Part shown: positions 18,231 to 61,443 of the stretch, piece by piece
How positions within the stretch are numbered: position 1 is the first letter of the stretch
Layout of the letters: every line of letters starts with the position of its first letter
DNA from: a virus
Lineage: Duplodnaviria; Caudoviricetes
IMG/VR virus record: IMGVR_UViG_3300016665_000195
Coordinates: 2,150 to 66,149 of that record
DNA: 64,000 nt
Direction: 5' to 3' (one strand)
Made by a program: the position numbers and the translations under genes
Notes under the pieces: model-generated
The model's input: the letters and a program-made list of their open reading frames with translations, nothing else
Databases searched by the model: none
What the model was told of the DNA's origin: nothing

Positions 18231-20012
18231 ATGGCAAATCACAACTCGTGGGCGGCGTCTGCGGCATCTCGCCGGCAGACCGCGATAGACAAATTCTGGA
18301 AAACTGTTGAGTCCTTATGGCCGAACGAGTACGACTACTCCAAGTTCGAGTACTTGGGAGCTACGACAAAAACCGTCGTCACGTGCAAGCGGCACGGAGA
18401 TTTTGTTACGCGCCCGACCTATTTGGTTAACGGGAACGGGTGCCCCTCGTGCGGGCGCGATAAAGTTATAGCTGCGGCAACTCGCAAACTTCTTGGGCTA
18501 GATGCATTCATCGAAAAAGCCCGAGAGGTGCACGCCGGCCGCTACACCTACCCCGAGCAGCCGTACACGAGCACCAAAACTAAGCTCCGGATAGAGTGCC
18601 CGACCCACGGGCCGTTTTTCCAGAAGCCTAACCATCATTTACGCGGGCAAGGCTGCCCCGAGTGCGCTAACGACGCCAAGCGTGCGCATAACGCGACGAT
18701 TGGTGTGCTGGCCAAGGAAGGGCTCCTAGCCCGACTTCGAGGTGTAAACCCTCGTTGGACGTACGATATTTCGTCGTTCAAAGGTATGGCGAAGCCTTTA
18801 CAGTGTGTCTGTGCAGCTCACGGTGCGTTTTCTGCAACCCCGAACAACCTGTTGGCCAACTCTGGTTGCGTGGGTTGCGGTAAAGAAAAGCACACCGCCG
18901 CACAGCAAGCACGCCGGTTGACGCTAGCGGAAGTAGCCGAACGCGGGCGGAAGGTGCATGGAGACCGCTTTACGTACTTGCGAGTGGAGCACACCCCTGC
19001 GGGGGCTATGGTTGTAGGCTTGTGCGTAAAGCACGCTCTTGAATGGCGGCAGGCCGCCGCTGACTACGCCACCTACAACCCCTGCACGCGGTGCAACCAC
19101 ATGAAGTCCTCCGGGGAGGATGCAGTTTTCCGGTACGTGAGCATGTTTACCGGTGCCGTAGCGCGCGACCGCACGCTGATCGCACCTAAAGAACTGGACA
19201 TCTACCTGCCGGATCGGGCGTTGGCGATCGAGTACTGCGGCGAGTATTGGCATAGCTACGGCGATGCCGACGCCGAGCGTCGTGGCAAGCGCAAGCACTT
19301 TGAGAAGTATCAGGCGGCGCGCTCCAAGGGCGTACGGCTGCTGACGATCTACGAATCCGAGTGGCTGTCTCGACCGAAGGCAATCCGTCGGCTGCTGCGA
19401 AATGCGCTTGGCAAGGGGCGCGGGAAGCTGATGGCTCGCAAGTGCACGCTCGGCAGGCCCTCGCTGGAAGAGGCACGCGCCTTTTACGAGCGCTACCACC
19501 CGCAGGGAGGTGCCGGGTCCGGGGAGCACTTCGGGCTGTACTGGCGCGGAAAACTGGTGGCCTGCATGCGGTTCACGTTCGGGGCGAACGACCGGGGTAT
19601 GGGCGCGGTTCAGCGCGTCTGGACGCTCACGCGGTTCGCAACTCGGGTTACGGTAGCCGGCGGCGCCTCGCGGCTCTTCAAGGCTTTCGTGGCCGAGTTC
19701 AAACCGGCACGGGTCAAATCGTTCTCCGATAACCGATACTTCGACGGCGGAATGTACGCGCAACTGGGGTTCGTGCTGGAAGCAGAATCCCCGCCGGACT
19801 ACCAAGTCTGGAGTCAGAAGCTTGGCCTGCGCCCGAAGGCGCACTACCAGCGCCGTGCGATCCCACAGCGGCTGCTTGATCACGGTATGCAGGAGCCGTT
19901 CGATCCTGATGCGGATCCGCGTTCGGAAGCTGATATGACCTATTTGATGGGCGCGCGTCGGATCTTCGACTGCGGTAAGCGGCGGTGGCTCTGGACTGCC
20001 CTTGACGCTTAG
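18231..20012 (+). CDS. Hef-like free-standing endonuclease: Zn-ribbon repeats + Vsr/PD-(D/E)XK-like nuclease + GNAT-like C-terminus
   Basis: Repeated CxxHG.F...GCPxC units; ELDIYLPDRALAIEYCGEYWHS; C-terminal YERYHPQG...GLYWRGKLVACMRF...LTRFAT...GGASRLFK...SFSDNRYFDGGMYAQLGF. Confidence 0.75.
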   Translation: MANHNSWAASAASRRQTAIDKFWKTVESLWPNEYDYSKFEYLGATTKTVVTCKRHGDFVTRPTYLVNGNGCPSCGRDKVIAAATRKLLGLDAFIEKAREVHAGRYTYPEQPYTSTKTKLRIECPTHGPFFQKPNHHLRGQGCPECANDAKRAHNATIGVLAKEGLLARLRGVNPRWTYDISSFKGMAKPLQCVCAAHGAFSATPNNLLANSGCVGCGKEKHTAAQQARRLTLAEVAERGRKVHGDRFTYLRVEHTPAGAMVVGLCVKHALEWRQAAADYATYNPCTRCNHMKSSGEDAVFRYVSMFTGAVARDRTLIAPKELDIYLPDRALAIEYCGEYWHSYGDADAERRGKRKHFEKYQAARSKGVRLLTIYESEWLSRPKAIRRLLRNALGKGRGKLMARKCTLGRPSLEEARAFYERYHPQGGAGSGEHFGLYWRGKLVACMRFTFGANDRGMGAVQRVWTLTRFATRVTVAGGASRLFKAFVAEFKPARVKSFSDNRYFDGGMYAQLGFVLEAESPPDYQVWSQKLGLRPKAHYQRRAIPQRLLDHGMQEPFDPDADPRSEADMTYLMGARRIFDCGKRRWLWTALDA

Positions 20013-44007: not shown

Positions 44008-47000
44008 ATGCCGTACGACGTTCAAGGTGCACGCAAGGCGGGCTATTCCGAAGCAGAAATTGCGGAATATCTTGGCGAAAAGCTTCGGTTCGATGTCAAC
44101 GGAGCCCGCAAGGCTGGGTATTCGGACGCTGAACTCGTACAGTTCCTTTCCACAGCGCAACGCCCGGGTTCGGGCGGTATCGGCACCCTTGGCCAGTTGC
44201 TCCGAGGCATTCCGGCTGGTGGCGTAAACCTGCTGGAATCCGCTGCGGTAGGTGCGTCGTCGGTTCTGCCCGACGAGTGGGAGCCCGCTGCCCGGCGTGG
44301 TATCAAGTCGGTAGCCGAGACCCTGAGAGCGCCGTTCGCGGAGCGACCGGGCAGGGAAGATACGGTCCTGCGTCGGATTGGCGAGGGAGTGGGTTCCGTC
44401 GGTGCGATGGTTCCGATGGCCTTGGCGGGTCCGCTGGGTATTGCTGGCGCTGCAGGCGTAGGTATTGCCGCCGGAGCCGGTGAAGCGCGCGTGCGCGCGG
44501 AGCAGGGAGGTGCGACCGAAGGGGAGCGCGCGGCTGCGACTGGCGCAGGTGCGCTGGTGGGCGCATCCGAATTGCTCCCCGTCACCCGATTGCTTGGACG
44601 CCTTGGAAACGCGGGGCCGGGCGTGGTCGGCATGCTCAAGCGGGCGCTGGTCACGGGTGGCGAGGAAGGCGTGCAGGAAGCTGCGGCCAATATCGCCCAG
44701 AACCTGATCGAGCGCGGCATCTACAACCCCGAGAAGGGTGTCTTCACCGATACCGGTGAGGCTCTTGGCTATGGTGCGGGTACGGGCGCTCTGGTCAGCG
44801 CGGTGGCCGACATCGTGTTGGGTGGGCGCAGGCGCGGTGCGGTACCGCCTCCGGCTCAACCTGCCGCCTCGGCAGCGCCCGAAGCGCCGGGTACGTCCGA
44901 CCTGTTCGTCACCGAAGGCCGTCCGCTTGCTGACCTGTCGCTCGCGGAACTGTATCTGGAAGAAGCGCGACTTTCCGCTGCCCTCGACGAGAACCGCCGC
45001 CAGCCCGAAATTGTCGAACGGATCAAAGAAGTTCGTGCGCTTAAAAAGCAGCGCAATATTTCCGATGTCGAAGCCCGAAAGCTTGAGCTAAACGCCAAGA
45101 AAGCGGTTGCTGATCGCGAAGCGGAACTGGCCGCACAATCCGTTTTTAGCGAAGAGACTCTACCGGAAGTAACGCCGCGCGAAGGTTTTGCACCCCCGGA
45201 AATCATCACCAGAGAGATGCTGGTCGAAGCCGGCATGCCGGCGGATCCAAAAAACAAGCTGGATAAGGAAGCCGTCCGGTGGCTGGAGCAAAATGTACTT
45301 GGCAAGTCGAAGGACGAACTGCAGGCGCTGGTCGAGGCGCGCCCTGCCCTGCTGAAGACCCCCGGCAAGAAAACGCCCGTCCTCAAGAACCTCTTGCTTC
45401 CAACCCCGCCCGCGTTCGTAGAAGGAGTGCAACGTGAGCCTGTTTCTGGACCCGAAATATCCGAACCTAGCGGACCTGTCGTTGGAGCAGGTGAGCCGGG
45501 CGTGGAGCTTCCTCAAGCAGGCGTCGGAGAGCAAGTACGACCTGCCGCCGCCCCCGGAGTTGGAGCACCTGCTGGAGTCGGAGTGGGTGCTGCTGGGGAA
45601 CCTGTTGCTGGAGAACCTGCGGCAGAAGGCGCACGCGTCGCTGCACTAGAGGAACCGGCTGCACAGGCTCCGACCGAACCGCTCGCAACCCTCCCCGAAC
45701 AACCGACTGCGCAGGGCGAGCCCGTCACCGTAGACCTGTACCGTGGCGTGCCGGCAGGGCGTGATCCCGCCTCGACCGAAGGCACGGTGGGCGAAGCCCG
45801 ATTCATGTCGCCCGACCAGACGGTGGCGCAGGTCTACGCAGGTCCGGGCGGCCAAGTCGCCAAAGAAAGCGTGACGTTCAAGAATCTGCTGTCGGCTCCG
45901 AGTTGGATGGCCGCAAAAGATCAGCTTGGCCTTCCGCGCTCGGCCACGATGGATGATCTGGTGCGAGCGGCGCGTGCCGGCGGGTATGACGGGGTTTCGT
46001 TCACGACTTCAAACGGCACCGAATACATCCAGATTCCGGAAGTTGGTGCCGATCAGGAGGCTGCGCAGCAAGCACCGGTTTCCGAAATTCCAGCAGTTAG
46101 CGAACCTCGCGTTGCCGAGCAGTTGTCTGCGGAGGAAAAGGCGCAGCTTGCCGAGTACGGGCTGGATCGCCGACCGACCGTCACCGAAGTGCCGGGTGGA
46201 CGTAAGGTACGTGGCACTCGATACCAGCAGGCTGCCGGTACGGAAACGCCCCTGTCGGCGGATGCAATTGCCGAACTTGAGCAGAACAACCTTGTCTCGG
46301 CACTGAGCGAACTTGAAGCCACCACGCAGGATCCGGCGTACAGGGCACTGGCGGCTCGGCTCAAGCTACTGCTCGGCAACACCGACGTTGTCATCCGCGA
46401 CGACCTCAAGCAACCGGACGGCACGCCCGCTGCCGGTGCTGCATCCTCCAACGGCAACACGATCTGGCTGGATCGCAACCGTGGGCTGAACGAGGAGACG
46501 CTGCTGCACGAAGCGGTGCACGCTGCCACCGAGCGCGTCATCGTAACGGAGCCTGCCAAACGTACGGCGCAGCAGAACGTCGCGATCAAGGAACTGAACG
46601 ACCTGTGGGCGTCGGCGAAGGCCGATCCCGGCATCACGCTGTCGGTGGACGCGCAGGACAGCCTGTCCGAGTTCGTGACGGAAGCGATCACGAATCCGAA
46701 GCTGATCGAGCAACTGAAGAACACGCCGTGGAAGAAGCAGACCGCGTGGGATCAGTTCAAGCAGATCGTGCTGAAGGCACTGGGCGTCAAGTTTCCGTCC
46801 AACATGTACGAAGCCGCGATGGCTTCGATGGACACGATCTTCAGCAAGCCCGCTGCGCGGGTGGCCCCTCCGGCACCGACGCCTACGGCAGGTGCAGTTC
46901 CTCGTCGCGCTCAACAACCCCCGACCCCGCAGTCTCCGACCGTCCAGCAGATGCTGGCGTCGGTGGCGAACCAATCCGCCAAAAAAGCTGCGTTCAAGTC

Positions 47001-49632
47001 GATGGTCAACGGTGCGTTCGGCGGACCGGGTAAAGGCCCGACCGGTGCCAACAACCAGTACGTCATCGATAGCGTAACGAAGATCCGCACCAAGCTTGCC
47101 GACAAGGCAGCTACCGTTTTCGACGTGCTGAACCGAGCCGTGGATGACGGGATGATCTCGGCGGTGTCGGCGAAGGCCATGCAGGTGGGCTTCAAGCAAG
47201 CCGAAGCTGCCGACCAAATGCTGCCGGAGTACTACCGCCGAGGTGCCCTCGCGCCCGACCCGATCGCTGGGTGGACGGTCGTCGATAGCAAGCGCCCGCC
47301 CGCCTCGGTCTTCCCCATCATCGAGAAGTGGGGCAAGGCGAAGGGCATGACGATGGATCAGGCGTGGGATGTTGCGGCGATGATGATTCAGGCGCCGCGC
47401 GAATACAAGTTCCGCGACTACAACCGCACCGCCAAGGCAGGAGATCCGAAGCTGCCGCAGTCGATGAGCAACGCCGACATCGACCTGTTCTACCAAGCGT
47501 TCAAGGCTGATAAAGACATTCAAGAGGTCAAGTCGATCCTCGACGAGGCGCGCATCGCCCTCATCGACCACATGGTGCGAGTGGGCCGGATCAGTAAAGA
47601 TCTTGCCAAGGAGTGGACTTCGGCTGCGGAGTACGTTCCGCTCGACCGTCTCACCGATAAAGAAATCGGAATCCTTGAGACGCACTTCCGGCAGCGGCGC
47701 ACTACCGGCAAGGGGCTTTCTTCGCTGGGCGGGCTCCCGGTGCTGGTCAACGCGAATTGGGTTGATCGCCCGACCGGCAACGTCATCGAGAACTACTTCT
47801 CCCTGCTCGGCTGGATGGTGCAGCAGGTGGTCCGCACTGATGCGCTGAACAAGACGGTGCAGCAGCTTGAGGCCATCGGGCAGGCCCGCCGGGTGGGCAC
47901 CACCCGCCCGGGCACGGAAACGGCGGTGATGACGTACAAGAACGGCGTGCGGATCTACTACGAGACGCCGACCGTCTACCATGCGATGGCGTTCAACGCG
48001 AGGGTGGCGCCCACTCTCGGGTTCATGAAGGTGATGTCCAACATCTCCAACGTGCTGCGAACCTCCATCACGGCACTGCCAACCTTTACGGCCGGGCAGC
48101 TTCCGCAGGATACCCAGCGGGCCATCTTCTACTCCGGAGTAAAGGATATTGCGGCGCTGACTTCGCGGATCGCAACTAATTTTGCGGCCCTGAGCAAGCA
48201 CGCAATTAAAGGCACGCTTTCGACTGCGCCGGAGACGATCGCCCTTCGCGAACGCGGGGTGGCTGGCGACGTGGACTTCCGGCTTGAGAACCCGGCGCAA
48301 TCGCTGCTGGAAGAGTTTGGGTACAAGTCGTACACCCAACTGAAGTCGAAGACGTTCGGCACGCTGCTGCATCGGATGAACGAAATCTCGCGAGCCTCCG
48401 ACCTCGCGGTTCGGCAAGGCATCTACGACCAGACGCTGCTGGAGACGGGCGACCGGCTGCTGGCGCTGCAGCGTGCGCGTGAGATCATCAACTTCCGTAC
48501 CTCCGGTGCCGGTGACCGGTTCCACATCCTGCATTCGATGCTGCAGACGATTCCGTTCTTCGGATCGTATGTCCAAGGTATGGACATCGTGTACCGTGGG
48601 ATGACGGGTAAAAATGCGGTGAGCGGGCTGCCCGCAAAGCAGGCCCAGAAAAAGTTCTTCGCGATGGCCGGTTCGCTCATGGCGGCGAGCATCCTCTACT
48701 CGCTGGCGATGGCGGGCGAGGACGAGTACGAATCTATGTCGCTTGAGGAGCGCGACAAGACGTGGGTGTTGGGTGGCGGGTTCGGGATCCCCGTGCCGTC
48801 CGAGATCGGCATGCTGTTCAAAGCCATCCCGGAGCGCGTAACGGAATACTTCCTGAAGCAGGGCACGCCGGACGAGGCGGCGGGCATGATCGCGGTCTCG
48901 TCGTGGTTCAAGTCGGCGTTCAAGGAATACTTCGGCCGTATCACTCCCATCCCGTCGGCGGCTCGACCACTGCTGGAAACGTGGATGGATTACTCGATCC
49001 GCACCGGGCGTGAACTGGAAGGTGCGTACCAAGAAGGACTGGAGATTCCGGAGCGGGTCACGTCCACCACATCCGAGTTTGCCCGGGAGGTTGCCCGGTT
49101 CGCAGCGGCTACAGGTATTACAAAGACGCTAAAGGACACGCTGAACGTAGAACTTTCGCCGATCAAGATCGATAACCTTCTCAACGGGTACTTCGGCACG
49201 ACGGCAGCACTTGGTCTCGCTACGATGGACGCTCTCGTCAGCGACCGTGCGGACCGCCCGTTGAGCCGCATGATCGGTCTGACCCCGTTCACCTACGAGC
49301 CTGTTGGCACGCGGTACAAGGACGAGTTCTACGAACTGCGCGAGCGCGTAGCGCAGGCGCAGCAGACGATCAACCTGCTCATGAGGCGCGATGTCGACGC
49401 AGCCTACAAATATGCGCAGGACCGCAAGGAAGAGTTGATGCTGTACCGCGCGGTCAACGCCACGCTGAATCATCTGAAGGCGACGCGCGACCGCAAGAAC
49501 TGGCTCGATACTCCTGCTGCTGCGGAACAGATGTCGGGGGCGGAACGGCTCCAGCAAAAACGAGAGATGGAGGCCCGTGAGCAGGAACTGACCAAGTGGA
49601 CCCGGGAGGCGCGCCGCGCGCTGGGCCTTTAA
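44008..49632 (+). CDS. large polyvalent ejection protein (ART-like, zincin metallopeptidase, LPD38-like domains)
   Basis: 1874 aa; DLYRG...FMSPD...GYDGV...GTEY (R-S-E ART-like, about 45727-46038); ETLLHEAVHA (HExxH, 46507); C-terminal IPVPSEIGMLFK..PER...YQEGL..PER. Confidence 0.8.
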   Translation: MPYDVQGARKAGYSEAEIAEYLGEKLRFDVNGARKAGYSDAELVQFLSTAQRPGSGGIGTLGQLLRGIPAGGVNLLESAAVGASSVLPDEWEPAARRGIKSVAETLRAPFAERPGREDTVLRRIGEGVGSVGAMVPMALAGPLGIAGAAGVGIAAGAGEARVRAEQGGATEGERAAATGAGALVGASELLPVTRLLGRLGNAGPGVVGMLKRALVTGGEEGVQEAAANIAQNLIERGIYNPEKGVFTDTGEALGYGAGTGALVSAVADIVLGGRRRGAVPPPAQPAASAAPEAPGTSDLFVTEGRPLADLSLAELYLEEARLSAALDENRRQPEIVERIKEVRALKKQRNISDVEARKLELNAKKAVADREAELAAQSVFSEETLPEVTPREGFAPPEIITREMLVEAGMPADPKNKLDKEAVRWLEQNVLGKSKDELQALVEARPALLKTPGKKTPVLKNLLLPTPPAFVEGVQREPVSGPEISEPSGPVVGAGEPGVELPQAGVGEQVRPAAAPGVGAPAGVGVGAAGEPVAGEPAAEGARVAALEEPAAQAPTEPLATLPEQPTAQGEPVTVDLYRGVPAGRDPASTEGTVGEARFMSPDQTVAQVYAGPGGQVAKESVTFKNLLSAPSWMAAKDQLGLPRSATMDDLVRAARAGGYDGVSFTTSNGTEYIQIPEVGADQEAAQQAPVSEIPAVSEPRVAEQLSAEEKAQLAEYGLDRRPTVTEVPGGRKVRGTRYQQAAGTETPLSADAIAELEQNNLVSALSELEATTQDPAYRALAARLKLLLGNTDVVIRDDLKQPDGTPAAGAASSNGNTIWLDRNRGLNEETLLHEAVHAATERVIVTEPAKRTAQQNVAIKELNDLWASAKADPGITLSVDAQDSLSEFVTEAITNPKLIEQLKNTPWKKQTAWDQFKQIVLKALGVKFPSNMYEAAMASMDTIFSKPAARVAPPAPTPTAGAVPRRAQQPPTPQSPTVQQMLASVANQSAKKAAFKSMVNGAFGGPGKGPTGANNQYVIDSVTKIRTKLADKAATVFDVLNRAVDDGMISAVSAKAMQVGFKQAEAADQMLPEYYRRGALAPDPIAGWTVVDSKRPPASVFPIIEKWGKAKGMTMDQAWDVAAMMIQAPREYKFRDYNRTAKAGDPKLPQSMSNADIDLFYQAFKADKDIQEVKSILDEARIALIDHMVRVGRISKDLAKEWTSAAEYVPLDRLTDKEIGILETHFRQRRTTGKGLSSLGGLPVLVNANWVDRPTGNVIENYFSLLGWMVQQVVRTDALNKTVQQLEAIGQARRVGTTRPGTETAVMTYKNGVRIYYETPTVYHAMAFNARVAPTLGFMKVMSNISNVLRTSITALPTFTAGQLPQDTQRAIFYSGVKDIAALTSRIATNFAALSKHAIKGTLSTAPETIALRERGVAGDVDFRLENPAQSLLEEFGYKSYTQLKSKTFGTLLHRMNEISRASDLAVRQGIYDQTLLETGDRLLALQRAREIINFRTSGAGDRFHILHSMLQTIPFFGSYVQGMDIVYRGMTGKNAVSGLPAKQAQKKFFAMAGSLMAASILYSLAMAGEDEYESMSLEERDKTWVLGGGFGIPVPSEIGMLFKAIPERVTEYFLKQGTPDEAAGMIAVSSWFKSAFKEYFGRITPIPSAARPLLETWMDYSIRTGRELEGAYQEGLEIPERVTSTTSEFAREVARFAAATGITKTLKDTLNVELSPIKIDNLLNGYFGTTAALGLATMDALVSDRADRPLSRMIGLTPFTYEPVGTRYKDEFYELRERVAQAQQTINLLMRRDVDAAYKYAQDRKEELMLYRAVNATLNHLKATRDRKNWLDTPAAAEQMSGAERLQQKREMEAREQELTKWTREARRALGL
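45434..45649 (+). CDS. candidate overprinted gene (+1 frame) inside the polyvalent protein
   Basis: AAGGAG at 45422-27, 6 nt before GTG; 71-aa amphipathic product; host frame is low-complexity E/P/G/A/V over the same interval. Confidence 0.6.
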   Translation: MSLFLDPKYPNLADLSLEQVSRAWSFLKQASESKYDLPPPPELEHLLESEWVLLGNLLLENLRQKAHASLH

Positions 49633-55986: not shown

Positions 55987-56013
55987 TAGAGGGCCTTCGG
56001 TAAAGCCAAAAGA

Positions 56014-56038
56014 GCGAGGTAGGAAAGTCCTACCTCGC
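56014..56038. other. 10-bp-stem hairpin upstream of the helicase
   Basis: GCGAGGTAGG-AAAGT-CCTACCTCGC; one arm is repeated at 56369-56378. Confidence 0.7.
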
Positions 56039-56094
56039 AACCTACATCCCGGATTGGAGACACACCCGGCTTGCGCCGGGCCAAACCAGTATAA

Positions 56095-56365
56095 CTACGC
56101 TTTGCGCGACTTCATAGCACCCGTGGAGGTGCGTGCGAACGATCGATTCTTGGACTTCGGCACGACCCGCAGGTTGCTCGGCGTCGTGGTACCACCCTTG
56201 CTGATCGGCTTGACGTGATCCACGTCCATGCCATCACCCTTATGCACCTTGCCTTCACGTTCAAGCATGCGGCGAGCCTTGGTGCGCTGCGCTCGATTCT
56301 TGATCTGTTCGGGCTTGCCGTGATACGCCTGATACTCGCTATTTATAGTCACGCGGTTTCGCCAT
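56095..56365 (-). pseudogene. HNH endonuclease with an apparent +1 frameshift after codon 8
   Basis: SD GAGGT + ATG 56365 reads MAKPRDYK-TAG; the +1 frame continues SEYQAYHGKPEQIKNR...DVDHVKPISKGG...NLRVVPKSKNRS. Confidence 0.6.
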
Positions 56366-56423
56366 GACCCTACCTCGCTTTCCCACGGACTTCACCCGTG
56401 GCTAGGTGCGGGCGTCGCCCGCG

Positions 56424-57083
56424 TCACCGATGCTCGCACGCGTCCTTCGATACTGGGCAGAACTTGCACAGACCACTCGGGGACGCATTCCAGACGCCAT
56501 TCTCCAGCGCAACGGCGATCCGGTCTACCTCTCCAGCCCACTTCGACCAGATCTCGGGAAGCTGGTCCCGGTGGTAGTCCGCCGATACCGTCGTGCCTGC
56601 GACCACGAAGATCAGCATGCCCTTGACGCGCTGCACCGTCGGGTAGTGCGACATCACCATCGCAGCCATCAGTTCAAGCTGCGAGGTATCGGCGAACCGT
56701 GCCGACTTCCCCGTCTTCCAATCACCCACCCACGCTCTGGTTCGCGCGCCGTTCAGCATCAGCAGGTCCGGGATCCCCCGGAACCATACGTCCTCGTCGA
56801 AGAACCCGCACGGGCTGAAGTCCTTCCGGACTCCAATCTTTGCCTCGCACAGGATCTCCCGCCCGGTGTCCTTCAGCTTGTCGAGCGCAGGCTGGTGCCG
56901 CAGCAGGTCGTCCGGCAGTGGCTCCCCGTTCGTCAGGTACAGTTCGAATGCCTTGTGCACCCGTTCGCCGTACATCGTCGCTTCGGTGGGCGACGACTTG
57001 AAGTTCTTCAGGATGCGGACCTGATGGTACCGACGGGCGCATCCAGCAAAGTCTTTTACGGAAGAGAACGAGTGCTTGAGCAT
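56424..57083 (-). CDS. Cas4/RecB-like PD-(D/E)XK exonuclease
   Basis: HSFSS...F..C.R.Y...GERVH...E...FRGIPDL...DWKTGK...QLELMA...C.FCP....C (Fe-S Cys pattern). Confidence 0.85.
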   Translation of the reverse strand: MLKHSFSSVKDFAGCARRYHQVRILKNFKSSPTEATMYGERVHKAFELYLTNGEPLPDDLLRHQPALDKLKDTGREILCEAKIGVRKDFSPCGFFDEDVWFRGIPDLLMLNGARTRAWVGDWKTGKSARFADTSQLELMAAMVMSHYPTVQRVKGMLIFVVAGTTVSADYHRDQLPEIWSKWAGEVDRIAVALENGVWNASPSGLCKFCPVSKDACEHR

Positions 57084-57115
57084 GGGACGGTTTTCACGTT
57101 CGTGACCGTCCGACT

Positions 57116-59887
57116 TTAGCATGCTCCATACGATTCGCCGACGCCCGACTCGCAGGAAAGTGGCAGTCCTTTTGCCCATGACGGGTTGCTCCGCATGCAC
57201 TCTTCGACGAACGCCTGTGCGGCGTCGGCCTCCTCCTTCGGTGCTACGCACACAACAGAGTCATGCACGGTCAGCACCACCGGATACCGCTTGGAGATCA
57301 TCAGCATCTGCTCCCCAATAATGCAGCGCGCCACGCCCTGTGTAATATTTTCGACGCACTTGGCTCCGTATATATACGTAGTCTCTCCGCGAGATGTATA
57401 CACCCACTGCGCCTTACCGGACTCGGATGCTACTTGCCTTAGCTCCGGATACTGGACGTGAAGCCTGTTGGGAAGCGATACCCCTCTACGCGGCACTACC
57501 AGAGCGATGCCGCGCTCGTCTATGCGATACGTCATGCCGGCGGCAAGGTACGTCAACGCCGTGTCGGCCCGCTTCCAGAAGTCCACGATGCGGTGATTCG
57601 CATGCCGGTAAGTATCGACCAGCCGCTTGGCCTCGGCCTCGTCCACCTCAACCCCTGCTTGCACCTTGAGGAACGCACGCAGTTTCTTGTGCCCCACGCC
57701 GTAGCCGCATCCGAGTACTAAGGTTTTCCCTACCTGACGTTGGTACTTACTAACTTGATCGGTGGGTATCCCGTACACCTTACTGGCCATCAGCTTGTAT
57801 ACGTCCTCCTTGTTGGCGAACGCCTCGACGAGGTCGTCCTGACCGGCCAGCCACGCGAGCGTGCGGCAGTTGGAGATAATCACGCCATTCGCGGTGAACC
57901 GATGCCGCGGACCAGCGTTAGTTATGTCGAAAACCGGGATAACACGTCTTGAACCGACGCCCTTCGATCGACTAGCCAAGCCCGAGTCGTAGTTACATGA
58001 CAGCGAAGCCCCGATTCCCGATGAAATTTTTGAATGCTCATTAGTTTGCCGCGAAACTCCACCAATGTATTGCACTCCCGGTTCTGCGCGTTTTCCTCCC
58101 GCGTCTCTAACCGCAAATTGCCCGGTTCGTAGTGCCCCGTATTGTCGATCCGGCCGATCTCTACCCCCCGGTACGTGGGATGCGGCAAATTCTCCCATAC
58201 GTACCGTACGAACGCCTCGCACGACGCGAATCGGTTTTGCGTACCTCGCTCCCGGTATGCTCGGTAGGCCGGATTGGTGCACGACGGGTTGGTACACGAC
58301 GTAATCCGGTTGTATCTCGCCCGGAGCGTACGGGATACTTGCGGGGGTAGCGTCGAGTAGTACGGGTGCGCTGCGGCACCTTGCTTGCACTGTGTAGATT
58401 TTCCGCTGCGCAAATCCGATAACCGCACTAGATACTTTCGAGAGCAGTGCGCGCACTGCGCCCACACTCGTTGTACTCCGCCCAGCGGAATCGGGTCGGG
58501 TAGTATCCGCCACGAACCGTACTGCTTTCCCACCTCGCTCTCCAACAGCGAGCGACGCGCCCTCACTCGCCGCCACAGAGAGCTGTAGTCTTCGGCCGTC
58601 GGCGGTGTAAACGATGTGGTCAGGGGTTCCTGTGATTCCGGCATATGTGATCACCTCCCGATACCCCTTAAACACGACTCCGGTATGCGATACCCACTCG
58701 ACGCCATCCCAGAGAAGGTCAGTTTTGAGTATGTCGACAATCCTAACGTACCCACGATCCCGGGTCAACACTTCGGTGTCACCGGAAACGCATTCAATTT
58801 GGGCCGAGTCAGACTCAATTAAGACATGATCTTTTGGCGGGAGGATCGCGCGCTTCAACTTGCCAGCCTGTGGCCCGCGAGAAGGTAGGTTTTGAAGGTT
58901 CACGGAATCCTGCCCGGCCCAACGACCTACGTGTCCGCCGTAGTACCGCAGGGGGACCGGGAAGTCCCCCCGCCCTGACATCTCGATGAACCGCTCGGTG
59001 CGGGTCTCCTCCAGCGTGGACTTGTTCCCGAGGCGCGCAGCGACCAGTGCCTGCACGCACTCGTCCGAGTGGTCTTGCAGCGCGATGAACTCCTCGTCCG
59101 TCTTGGCGAACGCATACACCTCCTTGCCGGTCGTGATGCTGACCTTCACGGGAGGCTCGACGCCGCAGTCGCGCAGCATCTGCGCGAACTTCTCGTTCGA
59201 CATCAACTGCCGCTTCAGTTCCTCGTCGTTCGTTATGCCCAGCTTGTCGGAGACTGCGTCCAGAAGATCCTGCTTGCGGTGCTTCACATCCCGCAGGTGC
59301 TCGATCAGCAGGTCGGCATCCAGTCGCAGGCGCGGCTGCGTGAACATTCGGACCGTCAGGTCGATCAGCTTCAACTCGACCTGCGGGAATCCCATCGTCA
59401 GATACTGCTGGAAGAGCTTGTACGTAAGCTCCACGTCGTTCTTGCAGTACTCGCCGTAGCGCGCGAGGTCGGCCGGTGCGAAGTCCTTGAACCGCTTGCC
59501 AAGCGCGTACACCACCTCGTCGCCCTTCGTACCGATCTCTGCACGGAACGCCTGCGAGGCGAGGCTGTGGCTCTTCTCGTGCGGGAACAGCGCCCGCGAC
59601 ATCGCGAGCGTATCGAAGTACCCCTTGGGCACGATCCCGTAGCGCCACGCGAGGATGGCACCGTCGAACATCGTGTTCTGGCAGAGCAGGAACGCCTGCG
59701 ACCAGTCGATGGCACGCAGTGCCGCCTCCACCTCCGGCTGCGGGTACCACCGGGTCGGGCCGTCGTCGATCTTGATGGCCACCCCGATCGTCTCGTACTC
59801 CGGCGAACGAATGTATGCCTCGGTGGTTAAACGGCTCAAACTGTAAGTGGTGCTGTAATGAGTTTCAAAATCTGCTGCGATCAGCAC
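57116..59887 (-). CDS. polA: family A DNA polymerase, intein-interrupted
   Basis: 3'-5' exo DFET, QNTMFDG, YCKNDV; polymerase DSAQIE|CR, RQVGKTLVLGCGYG, ENITQGVAR, TVHDS. Confidence 0.92.
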   Translation of the reverse strand: MLIAADFETHYSTTYSLSRLTTEAYIRSPEYETIGVAIKIDDGPTRWYPQPEVEAALRAIDWSQAFLLCQNTMFDGAILAWRYGIVPKGYFDTLAMSRALFPHEKSHSLASQAFRAEIGTKGDEVVYALGKRFKDFAPADLARYGEYCKNDVELTYKLFQQYLTMGFPQVELKLIDLTVRMFTQPRLRLDADLLIEHLRDVKHRKQDLLDAVSDKLGITNDEELKRQLMSNEKFAQMLRDCGVEPPVKVSITTGKEVYAFAKTDEEFIALQDHSDECVQALVAARLGNKSTLEETRTERFIEMSGRGDFPVPLRYYGGHVGRWAGQDSVNLQNLPSRGPQAGKLKRAILPPKDHVLIESDSAQIECVSGDTEVLTRDRGYVRIVDILKTDLLWDGVEWVSHTGVVFKGYREVITYAGITGTPDHIVYTADGRRLQLSVAASEGASLAVGERGGKAVRFVADTTRPDSAGRSTTSVGAVRALLSKVSSAVIGFAQRKIYTVQARCRSAPVLLDATPASIPYAPGEIQPDYVVYQPVVHQSGLPSIPGARYAKPIRVVRGVRTVRMGEFAASHVPGGRDRPDRQYGALRTGQFAVRDAGGKRAEPGVQYIGGVSRQTNEHSKISSGIGASLSCNYDSGLASRSKGVGSRRVIPVFDITNAGPRHRFTANGVIISNCRTLAWLAGQDDLVEAFANKEDVYKLMASKVYGIPTDQVSKYQRQVGKTLVLGCGYGVGHKKLRAFLKVQAGVEVDEAEAKRLVDTYRHANHRIVDFWKRADTALTYLAAGMTYRIDERGIALVVPRRGVSLPNRLHVQYPELRQVASESGKAQWVYTSRGETTYIYGAKCVENITQGVARCIIGEQMLMISKRYPVVLTVHDSVVCVAPKEEADAAQAFVEECMRSNPSWAKGLPLSCESGVGESYGAC
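57869..58792 (-). mobile_element. intein (308 aa) in polymerase motif A
   Basis: Starts CVSGDTEVLT (Cys1 at 58792), block B GITGTPDHIVYT, block F VIPVFDITNAGPRHRF, ends VIISN before extein Cys+1; removal restores DSAQIECRTLAWLAG. Confidence 0.92.
57922..58644 (-). CDS. HNH homing endonuclease nested in the +1 frame within the intein
   Basis: SD GGAGGTG 7 nt before the ATG; AQCAHC...LRSGKSTQC; CTNP...YRAYRERG; EIGRIDNTGHYEPGNLRLETREENAQNR. Confidence 0.85.
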   Translation of the reverse strand: MPESQEPLTTSFTPPTAEDYSSLWRRVRARRSLLESEVGKQYGSWRILPDPIPLGGVQRVWAQCAHCSRKYLVRLSDLRSGKSTQCKQGAAAHPYYSTLPPQVSRTLRARYNRITSCTNPSCTNPAYRAYRERGTQNRFASCEAFVRYVWENLPHPTYRGVEIGRIDNTGHYEPGNLRLETREENAQNRECNTLVEFRGKLMSIQKFHRESGLRCHVTTTRAWLVDRRASVQDVLSRFST

Positions 59888-60033
59888 GGCTTATCCTTCG
59901 TAGGTTCTTTTACCCGAACCACCCGCTTGCGCAGGCGTTCTCGTAGCTTCTTCTTTTCCTGCGGCTCTACCGGCAGTACGGCATGCTCACGCAGTATGCG
60001 TTCAAGCTGCTCTTTGGTTGGATCGCAGACCAT
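59881..60033 (-). CDS. small basic hypothetical protein (50 aa)
   Basis: Manual translation MVCDPTKEQLERILREH...KDKPC; stop overlaps the polymerase GTG. Confidence 0.4.
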   Translation of the reverse strand: MVCDPTKEQLERILREHAVLPVEPQEKKKLRERLRKRVVRVKEPTKDKPC

Positions 60034-60313
60034 CGATCACCTTCGACAGGTCGGATAGGTTGTCCTCGTTGATCACCAGCGCCACGCCGCCGGCCTTCAA
60101 GATCGCGTCGATCTCCATCACTTGCAGCGCAGTGGGTTTGTTCTTGCCTGCCTTGCACTCGACCGCGAGGAAGAACCCGTCCACGCATGCGATGAAGTCG
60201 GGGATGCCGACCCGCCCGTAGCCGTTGGCGGCGGGCATGAAGTAGTAGATCTTGTTGAGTTGCAGGATCTTCTTGACCTTGGCCTTGACGGCTGCTTCCG
60301 GGGTCATCGCCAT
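60002..60313 (-). CDS. VRR-NUC domain nuclease (Holliday-junction resolvase-like)
   Basis: TPEAAVK...GIPDFIAC...FLAVECKAGKNKPTALQ. Confidence 0.88.
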   Translation of the reverse strand: MAMTPEAAVKAKVKKILQLNKIYYFMPAANGYGRVGIPDFIACVDGFFLAVECKAGKNKPTALQVMEIDAILKAGGVALVINEDNLSDLSKVIDGLRSNQRAA

Positions 60314-60314
60314 C

Positions 60315-60539
60315 TCAGTACCCCCGCACTTCGCGAAGCTTCTGCATGTAGTGCCGTGCCTTGTCGGCATCGTCATCGGCACCGGGCTTACGCCCGGCAC
60401 GCAGCGCGTACTTGATCGAATTGCCCTTGAGGAAACCGACGAATTCCTCGGGCGTCAGTACCGCTTCCATCAACGTCCACGGCTCCACGGGCATCTTCTT
60501 GTAATGGTCGCCTCCGACCTCGATTTCGTCTGCGTTCAC
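60315..60539 (-). CDS. DUF3310 (SaV-like) protein
   Basis: VGGDHY...GFLKGNSIKYALRAGRK...DKARHY; SD AGGAGG. Confidence 0.85.
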   Translation of the reverse strand: MNADEIEVGGDHYKKMPVEPWTLMEAVLTPEEFVGFLKGNSIKYALRAGRKPGADDDADKARHYMQKLREVRGY

Positions 60540-60567
60540 TTTGCGCCTCCTATCGGTCCTGTTTTCG

Positions 60568-61443
60568 TTACGGGGCTGGTACAGGGGTCGGTCCACTATG
60601 TGTTGCGTCCAGCGTAATTTTGAACCCGTCCATGACTATTTCTTTCACCCCCCGCCAATGCTCGGAAACCGGAGTTATTGCGGTTTTCTTTCGGCGAACA
60701 TGTCTACTTACCCAATGAAGAATAGCTTTGCGGCGGCCCGATGGGGTAAGCGGCGCATCCCGCAATGAGAACAATTCTTTATGCGCCCCAAGTGGTACAG
60801 GAAAACACAGTGTTGCGTGTTCTTGAACTGTAGCCAAAATTGCGTTGGGGCGATGTGCATCTTCGATAATCGATGCAGCGAGCACAGCGGACTGAGAGTC
60901 AGTCCGCGATGCGGCACCCTTTGACCCTACAAAACACACAGGCAATGGCACCCCTTTCGCGCTGATAGCGGCGACACGCTGAAAGTATTCTTCTTGCCCC
61001 GTAGAAGTAATACTCCGGCCATGAACTTCGTATAGCGACGGCCGCCCCGTTCCGGCAATGTATACCCCCTTCGGAGTCCGGCGAAGTTTTCGGTACCCGA
61101 TCCACTCTACGCAATCGGCTTTGAGAACCGCTACCTCGGCGCTTTCAGCCAAGATGTCCTGTATGGGGGTTGCGAGCAGGTCGGTATCTAGGGCGTATAT
61201 TCGTTCTGAGTCTACGACATCGACGGTATAGACCCGCTTCGGCTTCATAGGCGAAAACTTGAGTAGGCAATTGCCCGCGTCACGTGCCGCAAGGTACGGA
61301 GCCGCCGAGGCGCTACCGCTCATTACACATTCCATCGGAGGAGCCACCACCGATTCCGCGCAAACCAAATGCGCAAGAAGCGTCTCAATCCAATCGTCTG
61401 ACAAAGGTTGTTCAGCAACTTTCGGGTCTAACTCATCTTTCAT
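60568..61443 (-). CDS. hypothetical protein, visibly more AT-rich
   Basis: 291 aa; C-terminal RRKAILHWVSRHVR...VSEHWRG. Confidence 0.7.
   Translation of the reverse strand: MKDELDPKVAEQPLSDDWIETLLAHLVCAESVVAPPMECVMSGSASAAPYLAARDAGNCLLKFSPMKPKRVYTVDVVDSERIYALDTDLLATPIQDILAESAEVAVLKADCVEWIGYRKLRRTPKGVYIAGTGRPSLYEVHGRSITSTGQEEYFQRVAAISAKGVPLPVCFVGSKGAASRTDSQSAVLAASIIEDAHRPNAILATVQEHATLCFPVPLGAHKELFSLRDAPLTPSGRRKAILHWVSRHVRRKKTAITPVSEHWRGVKEIVMDGFKITLDATHSGPTPVPAP

Follow-up and report, generated by a model that had tools for sequence, protein, structure and literature searches.

A 64,000-nt stretch of tailed-phage DNA (positions 2,150–66,149 of IMG/VR record IMGVR_UViG_3300016665_000195; hereafter the window) carries, within its DNA polymerase gene, an intein whose coding sequence is overlapped in the +1 frame by a nuclease gene. 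The polymerase is a family A enzyme (PolA; PF00476 and phrog_17 matches) encoded on the minus strand, like all parts of the locus described here, by a frame (57116–59887) that remains open for 923 codons, straight through a 924-nt insert, and its precursor is composed of a 365-amino acid (aa) N-extein, a 308-aa intein and a 250-aa C-extein. The second open reading frame (ORF; 57922–58644, 240 aa) lies wholly inside this insert on the same strand, and its TAA stop straddles intein codons I290/T291, directly after Asp289 of block F. We consider it likely that the two frames constitute a two-gene selfish element on one DNA stretch, in which an intein is paired with an overlapping, separately started His-Me nuclease for homing. 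A first-pass annotation of the letters alone had proposed an intein splitting PolA motif A and a nuclease started from its own Shine-Dalgarno (SD) sequence within intein codons, and its coordinates for the intein and the ATG at 58644, its SD and its stop at block F all stood.

Both frames bear the mark of selection. The +1 ORF matches PHROG HNH families 374 and 3377 (E 4e-14), and the third, unused frame contains eight stops across the nuclease stretch. Synonymous recoding of the nuclease introduced a mean of 5.0 stops into the intein frame and left it stop-free in 0.4% of trials; under the same test, ~2.6 of 108 family members would be expected to be stop-free in frame 0 by chance. Frame 0 of the intein is itself selected to stay open, as had been supposed. 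For the main selection comparison we used a relative, L101, with an intein of the same length at the same site (76% nucleotide identity). Frame-0 third positions account for 20 of the 26 substitutions over codons 1–48, and 12 of 13 substitutions in the C-terminal splicing region are at third positions; in the middle, 93 of 172 fall at third positions of the +1 frame, with a ratio of nonsynonymous to synonymous rates (dN/dS) of 0.12 for the nuclease frame and 2.1 for the intein frame. Frame-0 dN/dS is 0.07 over codons 1–48 and 0.22 over codons 50–95, where the nuclease frame gives 1.4; since the intein frame dominates over codons 50–95, the nuclease leader is the overprinted part there. The direction of these frame-specific ratios was repeated in all 10 other informative pairs, covering both frame types, and the +1 ORF is a real gene under purifying selection. 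A reading of the locus as decaying, drawn from a 15-nt imperfect duplication near 58300–58270 and a missing Cys, was rejected, as both features are shared with L101. Gene callers run on short contigs (L337, L338, L339) report the nested nuclease but overlook the intein frame, and on full genomes do the reverse.

The same arrangement recurs throughout a family of inteins marked by the motif LWDGVEWV, which includes those of APSE-1 and Salmonella Jerseyviruses and occupies several PolA sites as well as SNF2 helicases. A search of viral, metagenome and genome collections yielded 158 complete distinct inteins with the WDGxxW motif (118 long and contiguous, 33 short, 7 broken or split), a sample biased to elements retaining WDGVEW. 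In all 118 long contiguous members, that is, every full-length cis member, the nuclease sits in a shifted frame (+1 in 67, +2 in 51) and never in the intein frame, in keeping with the dual-frame conservation for which the first-pass annotation had suggested comparing relatives, and no in-frame nuclease occurs in any of the 158, cultured phages included. By position of the nuclease start, members fall into three groups: A (+1, to which the window belongs), B (+2) and C (+1). Other host genes are seen in L085, L087, L090, L092, L096, L152 and L052, with flanks such as LIDH|SGNY, PDIL|CGIA and QPIE|CYNA.

The nuclease is probably translated from ATG 58644, because codon-level selection on its start signals, traced across relatives, backs the earlier claim of independent translation. 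In the window, the candidate SD GGAGGTGA (58651–58658; duplex energy −11.6 kcal/mol) is spelled by intein codons Arg-Glu-Val-Ile and stands, reading 58658–58651, 6 nt upstream of the ATG (58642–58644), which is formed by Tyr49 (TAT) and Ala50 (GCC). In group A the ATG arises in the strand EVITY, where Tyr is followed by a codon beginning with G, and the SD comes from Glu-Val; the +2 start of group B lies at Glu-Trp of DGVEW, and the +1 start of group C lies beyond block B. GAG encodes this Glu in 22/23 members with an ATG at Tyr (13 expected from extein usage) and in 3/9 without it, and Tyr is TAT in 22/29 (11 expected); several of the members with TAC have an ATG within a few codons, at Asp-Val or Asp-Gly (judged by eye, uncounted). 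Similarly, Glu-Trp is written GAA-TGG, which makes an ATG, in 36 of 45 +2 members (18.5 expected) versus 25 of 58 +1 members (21.7 expected), and the +2 frame is open from the Glu-Trp codon in 42/47 and 7/61, respectively. Because the motif itself fixes the SD there, +1 and +2 members show little difference in SD strength at the +2 start (p 0.04). Judging from these codon counts, start codon and SD are supplied by synonymous choices in the splicing domain that track the frame used. A hairpin hiding the SD, as in T4 homing endonuclease genes, was unsupported (RNA structure z-scores −0.2 to 0.7), and a search for an internal promoter gave one sigma-70-like site (58768–58740), no more than shuffled sequences yield.

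At the protein level, the insert is by sequence and predicted fold a class 1 intein with a Hint fold at its ends, and splicing activity is predicted. It runs from C1 at 58792 to S307-N308 ending at 57869 (57869–58792) and is followed by Cys, interrupting PolA motif A at DSAQIE|CR; PolA profile matches break off at the insert and resume beyond it. C1, T56 and H59 (the block B TxxH), D289 (block F) and N308 are invariant in 59 aligned family members, among which the +1 residue varies. [quoted passage not shown] Accordingly divided, the insert comprises an N-terminal splicing region (58508–58792; residues ~1–95, the beta Hint half, overlapped by the nuclease gene over residues 50–95), a linker (57953–58507; residues ~96–280) that is open, of low pLDDT, unconserved as protein and apparently a by-product of the +1 gene, and a C-terminal splicing region with blocks F and G (57869–57952), defined by third-position substitutions and the fold model. 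Top Foldseek matches of the model are inteins (DnaE, DnaB, RecA; probability 1.0 for DnaE and DnaB). Profile and fold checks of frame 0 found no nuclease, and hence no canonical in-frame homing endonuclease (HEN) between blocks B and F. Pfam and NCBIfam left the nuclease unrecognised and barely recognised the intein, so that PHROGs and folding were required; the proposed profile search of each frame thus identified the nuclease, while Hint was recognised by fold instead.

Alignment to intein-less PolA, also proposed earlier, was informative about the splice junction. Among the 80 closest PolA loci in IMG/VR (L257–L336), the window's site is empty in 79, and all 79 that could be scored read QIE|AR, with Ala at the position where every intein-bearing allele at QIE|CR has Cys (the +1 Cys codon of the window, 57866–57868). 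At another site, GKL|CEN, the residue in empty alleles is Thr, Val, Leu, Phe or Ser, never Cys. This difference between filled and empty alleles suggests that the element carries or co-converts its own +1 nucleophile, an idea mentioned in PMC11855218.

By profile match and model, the nuclease belongs to the His-Me finger (HNH-type) superfamily. The model is confident (pLDDT 88.8) and lays out a short unstructured leader, a beta/Cys N-domain, the His-Me finger and a C-terminal helical domain, with a beta-beta-alpha core (strands 161–165 and 177–181, helix 182–187) in which N176 and N185 are present. The finger residues are R165, Y172, N176 and N185, with Gly164 at the family's Asp position; R165, Y172 and N176 are invariant among nested members. 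The catalytic His is absent: every nested member, and nearly every one of 155 other homologues, has Arg in its place, and the invariant Tyr172 follows seven residues after R165. The nuclease therefore departs from I-HmuI-type HNH homing endonucleases, in which the catalytic His follows the first metal ligand. The "intact HNH" of the first-pass annotation is thus an intact frame with a His-Me match, but its site lacks His and has Gly for Asp. Its best structural match is PacI (Z 6.2, root-mean-square deviation 3.0 Å over 84 residues), in which Tyr replaces His and Asp and Asn bind the metal (PMC4081073), and which is placed in His-Me finger group 20 (PMC5714182). Like R.PacI, the window protein has, by model match, a His-Me fold without the catalytic His and, putatively, with a Tyr in the omega loop, and Tyr172 most likely stands in for the usual His. 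R.PacI differs in that it is a restriction enzyme that forms a homodimer and has its finger surrounded by Zn-Cys motifs, whereas the window protein bears additional domains at both its N and C termini and carries Gly at the Asp position. The resemblance is a lead rather than a proof: a Foldseek search with the nuclease model gave no hit below E 0.001 (PacI scored E 1.4), and a PDB sequence search with the nuclease retrieved I-HmuI only (E 0.5) and no PacI match. No characterised homing enzyme is known to us that relies on Tyr in its active site. The family to which the nuclease belongs is very large (~178,000 clusters) and includes stand-alone phage genes; a dUTPase-annotated gene that matches it (L347:702-1310, PP758848.1) is probably misannotated, and two group A nucleases (L036 and L051, 3001–4215) are long (~355 aa), with repeated C-terminal helical units and an open intein frame.

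Several observations weigh against the two-gene reading. The intein scores 18.2 bits with TIGR01445, under the cut-off of 24.5, and its penultimate residue is Ser in place of His, although a penultimate His is not strictly needed for splicing. The codon tests treat related sequences as independent, on rows dereplicated at 90% with third positions largely saturated. The PacI match is of middling Z, and residue equivalence does not come from a superposition. Finally, the fourth Cys of the nuclease N-domain is missing, and Gly occupies the position of the metal-binding Asp in the window copy, in L101 and in P0002. It is this substitution that sustains the strongest alternative, an unlikely though not negligible one, in which the layout is the same but the window's nuclease no longer cuts and is retained to bind DNA or to serve in some other way, or in which the selection predates the loss. 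That position holds Asp in 87/91 members of groups A and B and Asp or Glu in 148/153 other homologues, it is a metal ligand in PacI (PMC4081073), and the closest Asp-bearing relatives are 52–60% identical (P0003 and P0004 carry Asp). Set against this, the Gly is common to three sequences that are 62–73% identical to one another, dN/dS is still 0.12 between two of them, L101 retains the ATG and GAGGT, and Gly recurs in other branches (L004, L018, L090) and in two unlinked homologues. Purifying selection persisted after the change from Asp to Gly, and loss of function is therefore not evident; cleavage by the window copy nonetheless appears to be the weakest link.

Much less probable is that the nuclease is reached by programmed +1 ribosomal frameshifting or bypass from the PolA-intein frame, as an N-extein fusion. 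Frameshifting is common in phages, and the two frames share a strand and a long overlap. However, the last three bases of GGAGGTGA form an in-frame +1 TGA three codons before the ATG, and a TGA stands one or two codons before it in many other group A members, which argues against frameshift entry; in addition, the ATG and SD codons are under selection, clades of the one nuclease family differ in frame, some using +1 and another +2, and RNA structure at the site is not significant.

The reading that the insert is a group I intron, excised from the RNA and encoding the nuclease, has almost no claim left. It draws on a RefSeq note that reads group I intron for Sodalis phage SO-1 gp38/gp39 and on the frequency of HNH genes in phage polA introns (PMC3428280), yet no Rfam intron matched at E<=1 within 56000–61000, the ends evolve as protein and fold as Hint, frame 0 is stop-free in the 118 long members, and minis retain the Hint ends only. 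In-frame HNH inteins do exist, but that the window holds one broken by two compensating frameshifts, through decay or assembly error, is just as improbable and is refuted by the census (0/158 in frame, cultured phages included) and by the overlap of the frames on folded, selected intein residues 50–95, which a simple double shift cannot give; a deep contig that matches without gaps also speaks against it. As to assembly, a public contig of depth 81, possibly from the same source sample, is identical to the whole stretch with zero differences or gaps; in other sequencing runs only small pieces matched, and no joint spanning the intein was found.

Returning to the two-gene element, its distribution is patchy, with empty, full and mini alleles all found. 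About 185 GenBank phage records match, 143 of them from Salmonella phages, cultured lytic phages (Caulobacter GB2A, Jerseyviruses) carry members, and the shifted ORF is present in all five records checked (APSE-1, SO-1, Ent1, GB2A and Javan113). Two family inteins occupy different sites of one gene in L001, L011/L013, L070, L098, L104 and L152, one being +1-type and the other +2-type in L070 and L104. Two members are split (L009, 3001–3963; L049, 3001–4007): the N-half ends in a stop, the nuclease comes next, in +1, and a short C-half begins afresh where the nuclease stops. In L011 (3001–3552), L015, L019, L045, L074 and L028, in-frame deletions have removed the nuclease core while both frames stay open and the start signal is kept. 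Because minis turn up here and there as sisters to full alleles, in some cases with ends that are identical (L013/L011, L113/L159), present mini-inteins are, on sequence grounds, mostly deletion products of full inteins. Group A forms one clade by splicing domain (support 99) and by nuclease (97), and so the two parts appear to travel together. In the nuclease tree, A and B join in one cluster (99) that excludes C, whose members are placed among homologues of unchecked context; these are quick trees, that of the nuclease built on cores cut by hidden Markov model, without an approximately unbiased test. The family has likely captured the nuclease at least twice, and the split between A and B would reflect either a frame switch or two related invasions. 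The earlier proposal that a free-standing HNH gene invaded a mini-intein therefore keeps the stand-alone relatives in its favour, but the mini ancestor is conjectural, and capture appears ancient and family-wide rather than an event of the window's lineage.

The general layout has already been described in 2025–26 preprints for other nuclease families, as the first-pass annotation had suspected in calling it perhaps not unprecedented. With both frames open and the nuclease frame under its own purifying selection, the window qualifies as an intein with an out-of-frame HEN. Out-of-frame HENs were reported in contiguous actinobacteriophage inteins (endonuclease VII-like in frame 3; antisense LAGLIDADG/VSR-like), where, according to the authors, the layout is rare and the second ORF is usually found outside the splicing domain (Gosselin, Arsenault, Gogarten, bioRxiv 10.1101/2025.01.02.630785). 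The window shares with these a contiguous intein, an unstructured in-frame middle, a nuclease in another frame and a proposed origin by invasion of a free-standing HEN. It differs in its His-less, PacI-like His-Me nuclease and in its family's hosts (PolA and SNF2 helicase versus their Pol III alpha), and in its family the out-of-frame form is the only full-length one, +1 and +2 are both used and the start lies inside the splicing domain. A cyanobacterial dnaX intein has a +2 LAGLIDADG ORF with a putative SD (Phillips, DeSimone, Gogarten, bioRxiv 10.64898/2026.09.14.751524); it likewise combines a same-strand overlapping nuclease ORF and putative SD with frame-dependent dN/dS and full, mini and empty alleles, but it is a LAGLIDADG element at one chromosomal site, unlike the window's phage family with its many sites, two frames and codon-level start tests. 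The system of PMC11855218 (2025) also places an out-of-frame HNH beneath an open host frame, without a splicing domain, whereas the full Hint domain of the window is predicted to remove the insert. Fractured genes, in which split inteins flank a free-standing GIY-YIG or Vsr-like endonuclease (Dassa et al. 2009, PMC2677866), are matched by L009 and L049; the window intein is contiguous instead. Three known cases, the APSE-1 P45 intein with P46, SO-1 gp38/gp39 and the Jerseyvirus (Ent1) PolA intein, belong to the same intein family and hold the same nested nuclease, although insertion sites and start types differ from the window (APSE-1 +1 with a late start; SO-1 and Ent1 +2). In RefSeq, P46 and gp39 appear as HNH endonucleases located within the polymerase gene; the SO-1 insert carries a group I intron annotation and that of Ent1 an intein annotation only, and our literature search found no paper on dual coding of the LWDGVEWV family, these three phages included. 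Against the two preprints, the points of difference are the nuclease type, the host genes, the scale, the use of both frames and the start within the splicing domain.

From the two frames, their selection, the start-codon bias and the empty, full and mini alleles, all of which are established from sequence, we infer splicing, translation from ATG 58644, cleavage, its target and homing as follows. Ribosomes translating polA would read the 924-nt insert through in frame 0; the intein ends would fold as Hint and splice out, joining Glu365 to the Cys supplied by the element, and the ~185 middle residues would form a disordered passenger loop whose sole need is the absence of stops. Other ribosomes would start inside the insert, at the SD and ATG that conserved splicing-domain codons supply through their synonymous choices, releasing a free 240-aa His-Me nuclease, most likely with Tyr172 for His as in PacI. 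This enzyme would nick or cut intein-free polA near motif A in co-infecting phages, and repair would copy the whole insert plus the +1 Cys codon. The decoupling of homing from splicing proposed earlier thus holds for the proteins, which are separate, but by their sequences the two move as one DNA unit. A wider generalisation, to which we give slightly less than even weight, is that these inteins form a large and stable class of elements whose dual coding is permanent rather than a transient step towards an in-frame intein, and in which splicing-domain codons serve as a start platform for either shifted frame, Tyr-type (PacI-like) nucleases were captured at least twice, one lineage switched frame, and carriage of its own +1 nucleophile widens the target range.

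The window makes up most of a 66-kb contig whose terminase, portal, primase, exonuclease and helicase genes mark a tailed phage. Elsewhere in it are a 593-aa free-standing homing-endonuclease-like gene within the structural gene block (18231–20012, plus strand; phrog_559, phrog_3339), an 85-aa conventional His-type HNH gene between exonuclease and helicase genes (56095–56352, minus strand) and a 1874-aa protein with a weak match to the virion RNA polymerase family phrog_2206 (44008–49632, plus strand; E 5e-10).

The preprints of 2025–26 presented out-of-frame intein nucleases as rare and left their mode of translation and persistence open; in the LWDGVEWV family the out-of-frame layout is the rule in more than 100 divergent elements. 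A concrete, mutable start signal, together with contiguous, split and mini forms, makes models of intein nuclease gain and loss testable. Furthermore, inteins that annotation treats as lacking a nuclease or as decayed in many cases conceal an intact gene, and the family offers more than 700 nt of natural dual coding in which one frame needs only to stay open.

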